The notes under the pieces are model-generated. The model was not told where the DNA came from, searched no databases, and saw nothing but the letters and a program-made list of their open reading frames with translations. A stretch of 64,000 nucleotides of DNA, taken from contig JAUWIX010000002.1 in the NCBI GenBank assembly GCA_030608005.1, positions 817 to 64,816 on the forward strand. Direction: 5' to 3'. Source of the stretch: Dehalococcoidia bacterium. Its GTDB lineage: Bacteria > Chloroflexota > Dehalococcoidia > Dehalococcoidales > BS750m-G39. Positions 1,374-61,180 of this stretch are shown here, piece after piece. Positions within the stretch are counted from its first letter, which is position 1, and each line of letters starts with the position of its first letter. A program made the translations under genes and the position numbers.

Positions 1374-2945
1374 TTATAGATTGATATTGGAATACTTTCG
1401 CCAGGGTCTGGCGAGGAATGCCTTGTTATCCTTATTCTTATCTTCCAGGATACCCAGCGCTCTATTGATGACTTTCCTGGTATCGCTGGGCATTATTATA
1501 TCGTCAATATAGCCTCGCTCGGCACCTCTATATGGGTTTTCATAAATTTCGTCGTATTCCTTGATTCTTTTGGCTCGCGTTTCTTCCGGGTTTGCTGATT
1601 CTCTTATCTCCCTGGCGAAGATAACGCTGGCGGCAGTTTCGGCACCAACGATGGTAACCCGAGCTGTGGGCCAGGCAAAGACAAGGTCAGCGCCAATACC
1701 CTTATCCAGCATGCCGTAGTGGGCGCCGGCGTAGGACTTGCGTAGGATGATTGAAATCAAAGGCACAGTGGCGTCAGCCCAGGCAAATAGCATTTTGGCG
1801 CCATGGCGCAGGATACCCTTCCAGTCCTGCTCAGAGCCTATCATATAGCCGGGGCAGTCGCCGAGAGTAACCACCGGGATGTTGAATAGGTCGCAGAATC
1901 TGACGAACCTTGCCCCCTTGTCTGCAGCATCAATATCAATAATTCCTGCTGCCCACATTGGTTGATTTGCCCAGATACCCACCGGGCGACCATTAAACCG
2001 AGCAAAACCGGTGATTACACTCTTGGCGTGGTCTTTCAGTGTCTCAAGGAAATAGCCATCATCTGCTATGGCATGAATTACCTTGTACATATCGTAGGGT
2101 TGGGTTGGGCGGTCGGGAATTATGGTATCCAGTTCGGGGCAGGTGCGCCACGGGTCATCCTTAGTCTCGATGCGAGGTGGCTTTTCTCTATTGTTAGATG
2201 GGAAGAAGGATAGAAGCTCCTTGGCTTTGTCTATGGCATCTTTATCGTCCTCGGCTATTATATGGGTTTGCCCAGATTTAATGGCATGGGCTTTCCAGCC
2301 AGAGAGTTCTTGAAGTGAGATTTCCTCCCCGAGCTGGGTCTTGACAAAAGCGGGACCGGCAATTCCCATAAAGCCAGTGTGTCTGGTTTGGATGAGGAAA
2401 TCCTGCATTATCGGGTGATAGGCTTGCCCTCCCAGGCAGGGACCCATCAGCAAGGCTATCTGAGGGACTATCCCTGACGCCAGGCATTGAGCCCGGAATA
2501 TCCGACCATAAGCCTCCAGGGTATCCATTCCTTCCTGGAGTCGGGCACCACCGGAATCGTTCATCCCTATAAATGGCCACCCCTTCTCCTTGGCGAAATC
2601 CATAGCTTGAGTTTCTTTCATGCCATGATATTCGCCGAAGGTTCCAGCCATAGCCATAAAGTCCTCGGCAAAGGCAACAACATATCTGCCATTTACCTTG
2701 CCGTAGCCGGTTACCACTCCCTCGGCGGGCACCTCCCTTTTATCCATGCCAAAATGGATGGTTCTATGCTTGACGAATAAGCCTATCTCGGTGAAAGTGC
2801 CGGGGTCAAAAAGGTATTCTATCCTTTCCCTGGCTGTCCACTGTCCCCCTTTATGGCGCTTTTCAACAACCTCGGGGGGTGCCATCTGCTCTATTTTGGC
2901 TCTCTTCTGCTTGTATTGCTCAATTAGCTCTTCGGTTGTTGCCAT
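1374..2945 (-). CDS. Acyl-CoA carboxyltransferase (methylmalonyl-CoA decarboxylase alpha / propionyl-CoA carboxylase beta family)
   Basis: The 523-aa protein has the typical carboxyl_trans organisation (FGMDKREVPAEGVVTGYGKVNGR, MNDSGGARLQEG, GPCLGGQAY, GYMIGSEQDWKGILRHGAKM). Confidence 0.85.
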   Translation of the reverse strand: MATTEELIEQYKQKRAKIEQMAPPEVVEKRHKGGQWTARERIEYLFDPGTFTEIGLFVKHRTIHFGMDKREVPAEGVVTGYGKVNGRYVVAFAEDFMAMAGTFGEYHGMKETQAMDFAKEKGWPFIGMNDSGGARLQEGMDTLEAYGRIFRAQCLASGIVPQIALLMGPCLGGQAYHPIMQDFLIQTRHTGFMGIAGPAFVKTQLGEEISLQELSGWKAHAIKSGQTHIIAEDDKDAIDKAKELLSFFPSNNREKPPRIETKDDPWRTCPELDTIIPDRPTQPYDMYKVIHAIADDGYFLETLKDHAKSVITGFARFNGRPVGIWANQPMWAAGIIDIDAADKGARFVRFCDLFNIPVVTLGDCPGYMIGSEQDWKGILRHGAKMLFAWADATVPLISIILRKSYAGAHYGMLDKGIGADLVFAWPTARVTIVGAETAASVIFAREIRESANPEETRAKRIKEYDEIYENPYRGAERGYIDDIIMPSDTRKVINRALGILEDKNKDNKAFLARPWRKYSNINL

Positions 2946-3052
2946 TTTGATAACCCTTCTCCTTTCAAATTTATTATCATTTTGGGGCTTAACAGGCTTG
3001 GTGTATTATATCATTATTGTTGCCGGGTTAACAACGCCGCCAGCTTGTTCCT

Positions 3053-3318
3053 GAGCTAGTTCAGATAGATAGGTGACACAGATTATCATGTTTCGTTTCT
3101 CTATAGCGTTGACCCTATCCCCCTGACCCCCTTCCCCTGGAGGGGAAGGGGGAAGTTGTTTTAAGAGGGGGCTTTGCCCCCTCTTTTTTATTCCTCCCCC
3201 TCCCTTTGTAAGGGAGGGGGAGGAAGCGGGTTCCCAGGAAAATCGAAGATTTTTCTGGTGCTTAAAGGGGGTGGGTTGCTAAGTAAATGTCCAAGGGGGT
3301 GAGATTAATAAACAATCT
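3053..3318 (+). mobile_element. MITE-like mosaic hairpin element (largest copy), flanked by a 12-bp direct repeat
   Basis: The T1 terminus gagctagttcagatagataggtgacacagattatcatgtttcgtttctc is followed by three GC hairpin modules and the T3 end taataaacaatct. The sequence cagcttgttcct occurs at both 3041-3052 and 3319-3330. Confidence 0.7.
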
Positions 3319-3348
3319 CAGCTTGTTCCTTGACACGGCTGGGTCAGG

Positions 3349-3963
3349 TTGTTAAACTATGCTCACTGTTGGTCAGCTTTTCGTTTAGGTGCTTCATTGG
3401 TTGGGAAGGCATCATCATATAACGCTCTGTCACCACAACCATGGCGCAGGGGTCTGGTTCAGATTTTCACTGGCGATGGGAAGGGGAAGACTTCAGCAGC
3501 CATAGGGGCAGTAATCCGAGCCTTGGGTCATGGTCTTAGGGTTTATATTGTCTATTTTATGAAAGGCGATTATCCCTATGGTGAACGCAATATCCTATCT
3601 CAGCTACCCAATGTTACTATGGGTAGTTTTGGGTGTGGGGGCTTTGTTGACCCAGCAAATATCAAGCCTGAGGAAAAGGAGCAGGCAAAACGGGCTTTAG
3701 CTGCTGCCCGTGAGGCTATGCTCAGCGGCGGCTATGAGCTGGTGGTTTTGGATGAGGTGAATCTTGCCGCAGCCTGGAACTTAGTTGAACTGGATGAGGT
3801 GGTCAGGCTTATTGATGATAAACCCGAGGATGTGGAGCTTATCCTTACCGGTCGCCGGGCTGATAGTAAGCTGGTTAAATCGGCTGACCTGGTTACTGAG
3901 ATGCTGAAGATTAAGCACCCTTATGATGAGGGGGTGATGGCGCGAGAGGGGATTGAGTATTAA
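3349..3963 (+). CDS. cobO: Cob(I)yrinic acid a,c-diamide adenosyltransferase (CobO/CobA family)
   Basis: It has the GLVQIFTGDGKGKTSAAIG P-loop and YELVVLDE, typical of CobA/CobO. The real start may be the TTG at 3397, after the SD TAGGTG. Confidence 0.8.
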   Translation: MLNYAHCWSAFRLGASLVGKASSYNALSPQPWRRGLVQIFTGDGKGKTSAAIGAVIRALGHGLRVYIVYFMKGDYPYGERNILSQLPNVTMGSFGCGGFVDPANIKPEEKEQAKRALAAAREAMLSGGYELVVLDEVNLAAAWNLVELDEVVRLIDDKPEDVELILTGRRADSKLVKSADLVTEMLKIKHPYDEGVMAREGIEY

Positions 3964-14337: not shown

Positions 14338-14363
14338 GGCGCCTACCTGAAGATTAGTTATCT

Positions 14364-14462
14364 ACCTCACCCCCTTTATCCCCCTCTCCTTTGAAGGAGA
14401 GGGGGGAGGGATTTATAAGAGAGGCGTAGCCTCTCTTGGACTCTCCTTTACTAACCTCACCT
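14364..14462. repeat. GC-rich mosaic hairpin repeat
   Basis: It has a cctcaccccc terminus, a ccccctctcctttgaaggagagggggg hairpin and an aagagaggcgtagcctctctt hairpin. Confidence 0.8.
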
Positions 14463-21135: not shown

Positions 21136-21260
21136 GCCTCCTGGCAGTGGCATATTTTCCACAAAGGGTTGCCCCCTCAGTATCGTCTGCGCTGGGGCGT
21201 TTCACTTCCGTGTTCGGAATGGGAACGGGTGGTTCCACCCCGCTCTAACCACCAGAAGGC
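21136..21260 (-). rRNA. rrf: 5S ribosomal RNA (solitary)
   Basis: The reverse complement reads GCCUUCUGGUGGUUAGAGCGGGGUGGAACCACCCGUUCCCAUUCCGAACACGGAAGUGAAACGCCCCAGCGC...CCACUGCCAGGAGGC. This aligns along its length with bacterial 5S, and the ends pair as helix I. The ends are accurate to about 3 nt. Confidence 0.88.
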
Positions 21261-21301: not shown

Positions 21302-21460
21302 TGTACTCGTTCATATGATTAGTGACACCTCAACTTTCTGCACCTCACCCCCTTAGTCCCCCTCTCCTTCTAGGAGAGGGGGAGGGGGACAGGGGGATGG
21401 GGTCAATGCTGCAGAGAAACGAAACATAATAATCTGTGTCACCTATCTATCTGAACTAGA
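21302..21460 (+). mobile_element. MITE-like mosaic element (T2 - hairpins - T1rc)
   Basis: It has the ends tgtactcgttcatatgattagtgacac... and ...gtgtcacctatctatctgaactag, which form imperfect terminal inverted repeats. It is an inverted copy of 27545-27676. The direct repeat aggggg flanks it (21296-21301 and 21464-21469). Confidence 0.7.
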
Positions 21461-21513
21461 GCAGGGGGGTAGAGAAGAATAGAGCACAATGCCACAGCTT
21501 GACGGCAAGGGGC

Positions 21514-27464: not shown

Positions 27465-27544
27465 CTTCTACCTGCAATCAATAAGCTTAATGCTAATCAA
27501 TTTGACCCGAAATATCAAGCTAGTCAGCGTTATTCAGAGCAGGT

Positions 27545-27676
27545 GAGCTAGTTCAGATAGATAGGTGACGCAGATTATCATGTTTCGTTTCTCCGCAGCA
27601 TTGACCCCCTTCCCCTAGAGGGGAAGGGGGTGAGGTGTAGAAAGTTGAGGTGTCACTAATCATATGAACGAGTACA
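27545..27676 (-). mobile_element. MITE-like mosaic element (inverted copy of 21302-21460)
   Basis: The T1 end gagctagttcagatagataggtgacgcagattatcatgtttcgtttctc is followed by one ccttcccctagaggggaaggg hairpin and the T2 end. The direct repeat gcaggt flanks it (27539-27544 and 27677-27682). Confidence 0.7.
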
Positions 27677-30261: not shown

Positions 30262-30309
30262 ACAATATGCTTGCATTTTTATCTAAATCCTTGTATCCTT
30301 ATCGAAAAG

Positions 30310-30535
30310 AATAGATGACCTGGAGGTGTCCGAGCTAGCTTGGGCATAACGGAGAGCAAGTCGGTGGAAGTCCGACGCAGTCCCGCCTACTGTGACTGAT
30401 AGATAATCTCTATCAGAAGCCAGAACGCCAACCTCCGGGCATCCTCAAACCTCCGCGGAGAAAGGGGGCGGGATGATGCTCAGAATGGATTGAGGAATCC
30501 CCCCTTGCACTAGAAGCAGAGGGGGATTAGTTTTG
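30310..30535 (+). promoter_or_regulatory. Cobalamin (B12) riboswitch with terminator-type expression platform
   Basis: The core is GGUGGAAGUCCGACGCAGUCCCGCCUACUGU (30363-30392) followed by GAAGCCAGAAC. P1 is cctggaggt/acctccggg. The hairpin aatccccc...gggggatt at 30496-30528 is followed by UUUU. Confidence 0.8.
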
Positions 30536-57265: not shown

Positions 57266-57325
57266 GGCAAAATTATAGCATGCCTATATCTGGGTCACAA
57301 CTTAGCGCACTCTTTCAGTACCTCA

Positions 57326-57590
57326 GTGGCACCTCAACTTTCTGCATCTCACCTCCTTCATTTACTTAGCAACCCTCCCCCTTTGTCCCCCTCCCTTAGG
57401 TAAAGGAGGGGGAATTAGTTGTGTAAGAGAGGCGAAGCCTCTCTTTGACTCTCTATTCTCTGTGGTGTTTAAGAGGGGCGCTAGCCCCTCTTAACAAAAT
57501 CTTCCCCCTTCCCCTCCAGGGGAAGGGGGTCAGGGGATGGGGTCAATGCCTGCAGAGAAACGAAACATAATAATCTGCGCCACTAATCTA
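57326..57590 (+). mobile_element. Degenerate MITE-like mosaic element (T2-like end, five hairpin modules, T1-like end)
   Basis: One end, gtggcacctcaactttctgcatctcacctcc, is T2-like. The hairpins include ccctcccttaggtaaaggaggg, aagagaggcgaagcctctctt, aagaggggcgctagcccctctt and ccttcccctccaggggaaggg. The other end, ggtcaatgcctgcagagaaacgaaacataataatctg, is T1-like in reverse complement. Confidence 0.7.
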
Positions 57591-57650
57591 TAACAGTCAC
57601 AACTTACCTCTAGCCATATGGCAAAAAAACTGGTATAGTGTTTGGTAAAC

Positions 57651-60910: not shown

Positions 60911-61180
60911 GAGGTCGTGCTAGATGGGGAGCTAGCGGTGCCCTGAACTCGCAATCCGCTATAGCGGGGTTGAATTCCTGCTTGAGGCCTTTGTCTGGTG
61001 GGACTACTTGGGTTAAGTGGTGTTGAAGGCTGGGTCCTACGCGGCAGAGCCCTATGAACCCCGTCAGGTCTGAGAGGAAGCAGCGGTAAATAGGAGCCCT
61101 GGGTGCCGTAGGGCTACCTGGTTGGAGCTGGCTGGCTCAGGCAAGCTATGAGGCGAGGTCGAGGGCGGGTGCACGACCTC
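60911..61180 (+). ncRNA. ffs: Signal recognition particle RNA, long (Bacillus/archaeal-type, Alu-domain-containing) form
   Basis: Domain IV is GUCAGGUCU-GAGA-GGAAGCAGC (GNRA tetraloop plus a symmetric loop). The 5' gaggtcgtgc (60911-60920) pairs with the 3' gcacgacctc (61171-61180). The length is about 270 nt, and there are 5' hairpins with GGUGCC/GCAAUCC loops. Confidence 0.8.

Follow-up and report, generated by a model that had tools for sequence, protein, structure and literature searches.

The window analysed here, a 64,000-nt stretch of contig JAUWIX010000002.1 from a Dehalococcoidia bacterium, contains a 266-bp element located between two divergent promoter-like sites, namely that of a carboxyltransferase (mmdA-like) gene on the minus strand and that of a cobA-like gene on the plus strand. 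The features of the locus are as follows.

3005..3034, minus strand: promoter-like site of the divergent carboxyltransferase (mmdA-like) gene; TTGTTA, 18 nt, TATAAT
3041..3052: left copy of the target-site duplication, cagcttgttcct; its final T may be base 1 of the element (TG...)
3053..3318, plus strand: hybrid non-autonomous element with an IS481-type left end, hairpin modules and the right end of a second MITE type
3053..3079, plus strand: T1 tip GAGCTAGTTCAGATAGATAGGTGACAC, the left inverted repeat (IRL) of an IS481-family insertion sequence (IS)
3080..3126, plus strand: MITE-specific inner left arm agattatcatgtttcgtttctc..ttgaccctatccccctga, absent from the full IS
3127..3152, plus strand: hairpin 1, CCCCCTTCCCCTGGAGGGGAAGGGGG, perfect
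3163..3191, plus strand: hairpin 2 plus T run, AAGAGGGGGCTTTGCCCCCTCTTTTTTAT; perfect hairpin at 3163-3185, resembling a plus-strand intrinsic terminator
3193..3223, plus strand: hairpin 3, cctccccctccctttgtaagggagggggagg, perfect
3233..3258, plus strand: hairpin 4 (ccaggaaaat/atttttctgg), 42-nt module gggttcccaggaaaatcgaagatttttctggtgctt; in relative G004, not in G001
3264..3289, plus strand: inner module resembling the C-type repeat, aaagggggtgggttgctaagtaaatg; in the predicted fold it pairs with 3111-3125
3295..3318, plus strand: T3 end GGGGGTGAGATTAATAAACAATCT, the right terminal inverted repeat of the C-type hairpin MITE (left repeat GAGATTGTTTAGCAACCTATCCCCC)
3319..3330: right copy of the target-site duplication; its initial C may be the terminal base of the element (..AATCTC)
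3330..3358, plus strand: target promoter of the cobA-like gene; TTGACA, 17 nt (TG upstream of the second hexamer), TAAACT; unchanged at empty sites
3397..3963, plus strand: cob(I)yrinic acid a,c-diamide adenosyltransferase gene, downstream of the element; TIGR00708, 175 bits, above cut-off

The reading frame of the cobA-type gene is open from 3349, and its inferred start is the TTG at 3397, preceded by AGGTG. The original prediction described a modular hairpin element of 266 bp bounded by a 12-bp direct repeat, and both were recovered: cagcttgttcct directly abuts the element at 3041-3052 and at 3319-3330, in the order ...gttaacaacgccgc CAGCTTGTTCCT [gagctagttcag ... taataaacaatct] CAGCTTGTTCCT tgacacggctgggtcaggttgttaaactatg... 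(the outer brackets enclose the element). With one mismatch allowed, the 12-mer has only these two sites in the window, where 0.38 would be expected anywhere, and the chance of an exact 12-mer at both element boundaries is ~4^-12. The target-site duplication comprises 12 identical bases, that is 10-12 bp given the two ambiguous boundary bases.

The element starts with gagctagttcagatagataggtgacac... and ends with ...taataaacaatct. Its three hairpins (3127-3152, 3163-3185 and 3193-3223) are perfect, as had been claimed, and the RNA fold of the whole element amounts to -120.7 kcal/mol (z = -5.8 vs shuffled sequence). Rfam returns no match at gathering score on 2900-3450 or anywhere on the element. 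The claim that no transposase is encoded also holds, the 266 bp being touched by a single ORF of at least 50 aa (2746-3054, plus strand), which overlaps by two bases and stops there.

At its left tip (3053-3079) the element matches 26 of 27 bases of the IRL of a 1071-bp IS found at locus L019 (GAGCTAGTTCAGATAGATGGGTGACAC). The inner left arm ends in sequence similar to the interior of the C-type left repeat (ACCTATCCCCCTGACCCCC), and the segment 3193-3318 has orthologous counterparts in the elements that G004, G001, L122 and L123 carry at this locus. Since the element is without the family's own right inverted repeat and carries that of a second MITE type instead, it is a hybrid. No true terminal inverted repeat in the strict sense is present, because the two ends stem from two element types; T1 and T3 agree at 8 of 11 tip bases (GAGCTAGTTCA vs GAGATTGTTTA).

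The conserved T1 end (GAGCTAGTTCAGATAGATWGGTGACAC) with which the element was said to start recurs in the window at 21414-21462 (minus strand) and 27545-27593 (plus strand) and has 37 copies in the source genome assembly (1.12 Mb, 38 contigs, 87% complete); the copy count proposed with the original prediction thus runs to dozens. The T2 right end (GTGTCACTAATCATATGAACGAGTACA) has 21 copies in the same assembly, and 12 T1..T2 pairs of 132-385 bp were found. In canonical copies T1 and T2 are mutual imperfect inverted repeats of 27-28 nt. Commoner still is the C-type hairpin element, with a T3 end on the right (GGGGGTGAGRTTRATAAACAATCT, 67 copies) and GAGATTGTTTAGCAACCTATCCCCC on the left (27 copies). 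Among the matches listed, the exact T1 21-mer occurs on more than 100 contigs of many Dehalococcoidia MAGs. Family elements break MAG assemblies, as is seen from the many contigs that terminate within T1/T2 repeats. Beside solo ends in the source genome no transposase was found, the neighbours being ordinary genes such as groES/groEL. Further T1..T2 copies in the window are listed here.

21302..21465, minus strand: canonical T1..T2 MITE, duplication ccccct, upstream of the promoter of a 5S rRNA gene
27544..27676, plus strand: canonical 133-bp T1..T2 MITE of the same family, 6-bp duplication gcaggt, empty site in G004
57309..57597, minus strand: degenerate T1..T2 copy with five hairpin modules, flanks taagtt(gtgac)

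The 5S rRNA gene (21139-21256, minus strand; Rfam 91 bits) is solitary and has its own promoter-like site, TTGCAC..TAAAAT, directly upstream of which the 21302-21465 MITE stands. Solo hairpin units with a T3-type tail occupy short intergenic spacers at 527-581 and 14351-14405 (both minus strand), where the neighbouring genes run in the same direction. A hisI-like gene has its TTG start immediately after the tail GGGGGTGAGG at ~540-560, and the tail is therefore taken to act as its ribosome-binding site. A reading of T3 as coding sequence was rejected: the ribosome-binding site and TTG start at 540-560 face a TAG at the homologous triplet in 14350-14380, so that the similarity is that of the repeat and not of a protein. 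A different repeat module, gtcattgcgagc..ggcaatctc..cctcgcaatgac, with long inverted repeats, forms the body of T1..T2 elements in other genomes (L108 (G009), L007, L014, L123) and also occupies the cobA-upstream site in G009, a different cargo between the same ends. One T1..T2 MITE (L102, IMGVR_UViG_3300032118_002471) lies on a viral-classed contig whose flank matches the bacterial MAG contigs L029 and L098.

Among the T1-pattern matches listed, five loci show a T1-to-T2 distance of 1065-1091 bp. The one at L019:4736-5806 is a 1071-bp IS with the ends TGAGCTAGTTCAGATAGATGGGTGACAC and GTGTCACTAATCATATGGACGAGTACA and a single ORF of 336 aa. The best NCBIfam model for this ORF is IS481 (NF033577; E 3e-62, 210.7 bits, curated cut-off 224), the IS3 model reaching E 4e-28 and 98.6 bits, and Pfam recognises rve_3, HTH_32 and HTH_28. 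By best profile match, at a score slightly below the curated cut-off, IS481 is clearly the best family for the partner IS. Its right end, ...GAGTACA, fits TGT...ACA termini; the left reads T/GAGCTAG (here and below a slash within a junction marks the boundary), that is TGA, with a T that may belong either to the element or to the duplication. MITE and IS have only the outer 27-28 bases of each end in common. The search for a cognate transposase that had been proposed came out in favour of the prediction: the ends of an IS481-family IS match T1 and T2. The 266-bp copy itself matches at its left end only.

In the source genome, only pieces of the IS are assembled, at contig ends; one copy looks internally deleted and another is 5'-truncated.

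C10:19865-20275: catalytic-core fragment at a contig end, 88% identity, residues 167-303
C3:1-126 and C20:1-126: C-terminal ends plus T2 at contig starts
C38:1-260: apparently internally deleted copy, IRL and ~30 codons fused to the catalytic core, no HTH region

The source genome assembly, 87% complete, holds no intact transposase gene, and a search at E ≤ 1e-30 found none in 24 same-family relatives, several of them MITE carriers. Because MAGs assemble multicopy IS poorly, this is weak evidence and not proof of absence. A full-length IS was also seen on a 4-kb contig binned as Heimdallarchaeota (L025, JAAFKI010000006.1), which is probably a mis-binned Dehalococcoidia contig.

For 48 distinct T1..T2 copies from the source genome and other MAGs, the six bases left of T1 were compared with the six right of T2. 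All six are identical in 20 of the 48 copies and five of six in 10, so that 30/48 carry the flanking duplications that the original prediction expected of other full copies. The full IS copies L003 and L084 have the 6-bp duplications agccgt and aaggat, each followed by TGACA. Across 58 right flanks, the counts at positions +6 to +11 are T53 T47 G48 A35 C37 A30, spelling TTGACA; TTGAC at exactly the +6 position occurs in 28/58 flanks vs 0.11% of random genome positions, and TAnnnT lies 16-18 nt beyond in 42/58 flanks vs 4.7%. Of the genes downstream of the T2 end, 32 are co-oriented, pointing away from the element, and 3 are opposed; gene orientation upstream of T1 shows no comparable bias. The sharp right-flank consensus and the 32 vs 3 gene orientation therefore indicate that the family inserts in a single orientation, immediately ahead of a TTGACA -35 hexamer.

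The 6-bp duplication closes with the T that opens the -35 hexamer; if this T is counted in the TG... tip of the element, the duplication is 5 bp long and abuts the hexamer. The idea that the element carries the -35 box was rejected: the box belongs to the target, because empty sites retain TTGACA. At the locus of the 27544-27676 copy, G004 reads uninterrupted ...gggcatgTTACTT...TATAAT. In the part of the literature covered, no IS is described as targeting the upstream edge of -35 hexamers, and no IS481-derived MITEs are described in Dehalococcoidia. At three loci of ~40 (L007, L014 and G000:C31:28314; ~0.2 expected), the duplication is preceded on its left by six bases identical to those that close the right end (AGTAAA/AGTACA plus the duplication), which could reflect tandem re-insertion at one promoter or a preference for targets that resemble the element's own end.

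Wherever a long flanking repeat was found, the right end of the copy is non-canonical; end pairs and repeats are set out here.

266-bp window copy: IRL/T3; flanking repeat 12/12
C4:17106: IRL/T3; AGCCAATACAAACT on one side and AACCAAGACAAACT on the other (14-15 bp)
C36:32108: IRL/degenerate end; TTACTAGCTGGACT and TTACTAGCTAAACT
C3:14131: IRL/T3; 14/14
L093: IRL/inverted IRL; 12/12, or 17/20 if extended

Apart from C4:17106, the repeats of these non-canonical copies measure 12-20 bp. In every long case the right repeat copy ends T/TG, mostly T/TGAC or T/TGAA, and only the left cut is shifted. At the C4:17106 locus the relatives G010 and G014 have a single GCCAATACAAACT/TGACAA, which proves this long repeat to be a true duplication. 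Two orthologues of G000:C4:17106, L145 (G009) and L147 (G007), hold the left repeat copy, 12-16 extra bases and then TGACA, e.g. AACCAATACAAACT cttgattgcaaaaact TGACAAT; the extra bases could be footprints of element loss in which a degenerate second repeat copy was retained. In the C3:14131 and C33:14118 hybrids the repeats overlap T3-like sequence, which hints at more complicated histories.

Most IS481 members generate 6-bp duplications and 'not a few' generate ~15 bp (PMC10045372). The two length classes of this family accord with that pattern; the 12 bp of the window copy falls short of the long class of the literature. Discrete duplication classes of unexplained mechanism are also known from the IS1202 group and the eukaryotic IS481EU, in the latter even within one family (PMC10045372; PMC10132070). 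Read inward, the T3 tip (GAGATTGTTTA) agrees with the IRL tip (GAGCTAGTTCA) at 8/11 positions, as does the true right end (GTACTCGTTCA); T3 is thus about as IRL-like as the true right end, and its use by the same enzyme is therefore plausible. The hybrid was presumably moved by the transposase that serves the rest of the family, and the pairing of ends appears to determine duplication length, the combination of IRL with a non-cognate end probably changing the geometry of the strand-transfer complex to give the long class. The 266-bp copy as such is ordinary; what is unusual is the promoter-edge targeting of its family together with the two duplication classes.

The history of the site upstream of cobA was traced in orthologous intergenic regions from the genomes of relatives (MAGs labelled Dehalococcoidia or Dehalococcoidales) and from metagenomes; identities are those of the flanks to the window.

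G018, 81-82%: empty, ..aacgccgccccaccttccTTGACAC..; single short spacer before the TTGACA..TAAACT promoter
G002, 81-83%: empty, ..aacgccgttgtttcTTGACAC..; single short spacer before the TTGACA..TAAACT promoter
L123 (metagenome contig), 92.6%: left junction gccgcCAGCTTGTTCCT/GAGCTAGTTCAG (GAGCTAGTTCAGACAGATTGG) as in the window, then other hairpin modules; right junction ...GGTGAGATTAATAAACAATCT (..AATCT)/CCTCTTATTCCT/TGACAC
L122, 91.6%: contig begins within the element; right repeat cctcttgttcct
G004, 87.8%: as L123 minus a 29-nt deletion; left repeat and T1 stub lost
G001, 83-87%: more diverged element with a T3-like end
G009, 87.5-88.7%: unrelated inverted insertion at the same spot

The claim that the direct repeat is a target-site duplication was borne out by the 12/12 match, by the empty sites in G018 and G002, which had been named as the place to look, and by the left junction kept in L123. 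A search of the metagenomes for the exact empty or filled site of a near-identical strain, with the pattern CAGCTTGTTCCTTGACACGGCT, gave no match. Both duplication copies are intact in the window, and in the other lineage the right copy has changed at 2-3 positions, to cctcttgttcct in L122 and cctcttattcct in L123 and G004. The junctions show that T1 already stood against the left repeat and T3 against the right repeat in the common ancestor of the window and L123. That G004 represents the ancestral state, with T1 a late arrival, was rejected on the grounds that L123 retains a T1 remnant and the left repeat and that G004 has a 29-nt deletion. The left modules differ in G004, G001 and L123, and with the interior thus reshuffled among relatives the present element is not the unit that originally transposed; it is by this later reshuffling that the left 179 bases of the window copy are still 87-90% like 224-bp T1..T2 copies. 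The insertion is old, not recent, and the cobA promoter has been struck at least twice independently. The original description of a MITE-like insertion therefore stands in a refined form, with hybrid ends, a duplication of the long class (12 bp vs the 6-bp norm) and considerable age.

We consider it likely that the 266-bp element is a chimeric non-autonomous MITE, inserted at the edge of the cobA -35 hexamer by a trans-acting IS481-family DDE transposase with a duplication of the long class. In the proposed mechanism, an IS481-family DDE transposase supplied in trans would insert an element whose left end is the left inverted repeat of the IS, whose body is a string of GC-rich hairpin modules, and which finishes on the right in the terminal repeat of a second MITE type, with an inward tip (GAGATTGTTTA) resembling that of the IS (GAGCTAGTTCA). 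Integration, always in the same orientation, would take place just ahead of a sigma-70-type -35 hexamer, in this case that of the cobA promoter, without damage to the promoter. A cognate left end combined with a non-cognate right one would be accompanied by a long-class duplication (12 identical bases) vs the usual 6 bp. A further step is speculative, and we would not count on it: the transposase may find its target through the promoter itself, either by reading the -35 hexamer or by docking on bound sigma or RNA polymerase (cf. ISAjo2-type elements on XerC), with the spacing of the cuts set at ~6 vs 12-15 bp by the right end that is paired with IRL. If true, this would amount to a 'promoter-homing' IS/MITE system, which settles where a streamlined genome can safely take an insertion.

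The 12-bp repeat might instead have arisen in several steps, with a canonical 6-bp event (gttcct/TGACAC) followed by recombination, tandem re-insertion or slippage, in the course of which a resident T3 replaced T2 and the repeat was extended. Six base pairs are indeed the family norm, the element is chimeric with a right half older at the locus than the variable left modules, and G009 holds an independent inverted insertion at the very same place; moreover, the left flanks of L007, L014 and C31 carry a further copy of the final 6 bases of the right end together with the duplication, and those of C3:14131 and C33:14118 repeat T3-like bases, which suggests several hits on one promoter followed by deletions. 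Against this, no path of one or two steps was found that would leave cagctt to the left of T1 and also to the right of T3: entry of a C-type element and then of a T1..T2 element, an insertion into TGATA within T3 with subsequent deletion, and unequal crossing-over as the source of the repeat each need extra events to reach the observed order. The contacts of T1 with the left repeat and of T3 with the right repeat are already ancestral by the evidence of L123, the 14-15-bp repeat of the second hybrid is single-copy at the G010 and G014 empty sites, and discrete long duplications are documented in IS481 relatives (PMC10045372). A multi-step origin is thus improbable. Far less probable still, and the least credible of the readings considered, is a REP/BIME- or BoxC-like repeat kept by the host for structural or regulatory purposes, spread by a RAYT-type enzyme or by recombination, with the flanking repeat incidental. 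Such a repeat would suit the occurrence of hairpin modules singly in short intra-operon spacers and of a G-rich tail usable as a ribosome-binding site, e.g. at 540-560 ahead of a TTG start. It is opposed by element ends that match an IS481-type IS, by exact duplications and clean filled/empty polymorphisms, and by a placement relative to the -35 box that is precise and orientation-specific; a search for PF01797 (Y1/RAYT) gave no match in the source genome (87% complete), with control genomes responding, and with no Y1 transposase there a RAYT/REPtron origin was rejected.

It is also very doubtful that a transposon insertion has been retained here for host use, whether to terminate or insulate transcription between the mmdA-like and cobA promoters, which diverge, or to serve as an upstream promoter element. 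Several features would fit this proposal. The cobA-upstream site is occupied by elements across lineages with 8-17% flank differences, the family stands at position -41 and upstream, where UP elements act, and hairpins 1 and 2 (3127-3191) look like plus-strand intrinsic terminators. T1 of the 266-bp element contains a weak inward promoter-like site, TTCAGA-18-TATCAT, and transcription from it would, as judged by the terminator-like form of these hairpins, be halted short of cobA. On the other side, G018 and G002 have the same promoter without an element, and relatives have exchanged or deleted the internal modules freely, which argues against sequence constraint. Since the same promoter serves G018 and G002, where the element is absent, and its modules are swapped in relatives, the element today most likely does nothing essential; it would seem to have no function except possibly that of terminating transcription that enters it.

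The preferred reading, insertion by an IS481-family transposase acting in trans, can be set beside several known systems. With the IS481 family, e.g. IS481 of Bordetella pertussis, the partner IS shares a length of ~1.07 kb, a single-ORF DDE transposase with HTH and rve domains, a right end in ..ACA (TGT.. inward), 6-bp duplications, which are the majority class of the family (PMC10045372), and the best-scoring NCBIfam model. It differs in its score of 210.7 bits, just below the cut-off of 224, in a left tip that reads TGA and not TGT, in a target of N5T/TGACA at promoters, and in MITE derivatives that far outnumber the IS. IS481 itself has the target NCTAGN.

The closest analogue in targeting is the ISAjo2 type of the IS1202 family, 'pdif/dif site hunters' for which the XerC site lies 5 bp from the insertion (Harmer, Pong & Hall 2023, PMC10132070). 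Both systems insert in a constant orientation within a few bp of a short DNA site that a protein binds and have TGT..ACA-type ends, here with a left tip that reads TGA, and IS1202 likewise falls into subgroups, some with short duplications (3-5 bp) and others with long ones (over 15 bp) (PMC10132070). However, the transposase there has 441-457 aa and is TnsB-like, whereas here it has 336 aa and is IS481-like; the target there is dif, here the promoter -35 box; and here both duplication classes occur within one element family, where they track the type of right end. IS481EU/Banshee of parabasalids also shows discrete duplications (~4, 15, 25 bp) within a single family, including non-autonomous copies (PMC10045372), but these elements are eukaryotic, with no promoter targeting described and no link to end type reported. 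Finally, the pneumococcal BOX/RUP/SPRITE clusters and enterobacterial REP/BIME are similarly modular, hairpin-rich, intergenic and high-copy, with nested insertions (PMC10969869), whereas the modules described here are bounded by the ends of an IS481-type IS and have exact duplications and a defined target at the -35 edge.

The contrast between cognate and non-cognate right ends within one family bears on the unexplained discrete duplication lengths of IS481, IS1202 and IS481EU transposases. The targeting is unusually sharp and orientation-specific, and offers a testable case of bacterial promoter-directed integration with one 336-aa protein. The family also supplies the mobile-element explanation, so far missing, of the dense hairpin repeats in uncultured Dehalococcoidales, and its elements flag promoters in genomes without transcript data. 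Elsewhere in the window, two ordinary features were recognised: a cobalamin riboswitch at 30306-30450 (plus strand; 33.3 bits, slightly over gathering) and, at 60915-61176 (plus strand), a large SRP RNA.
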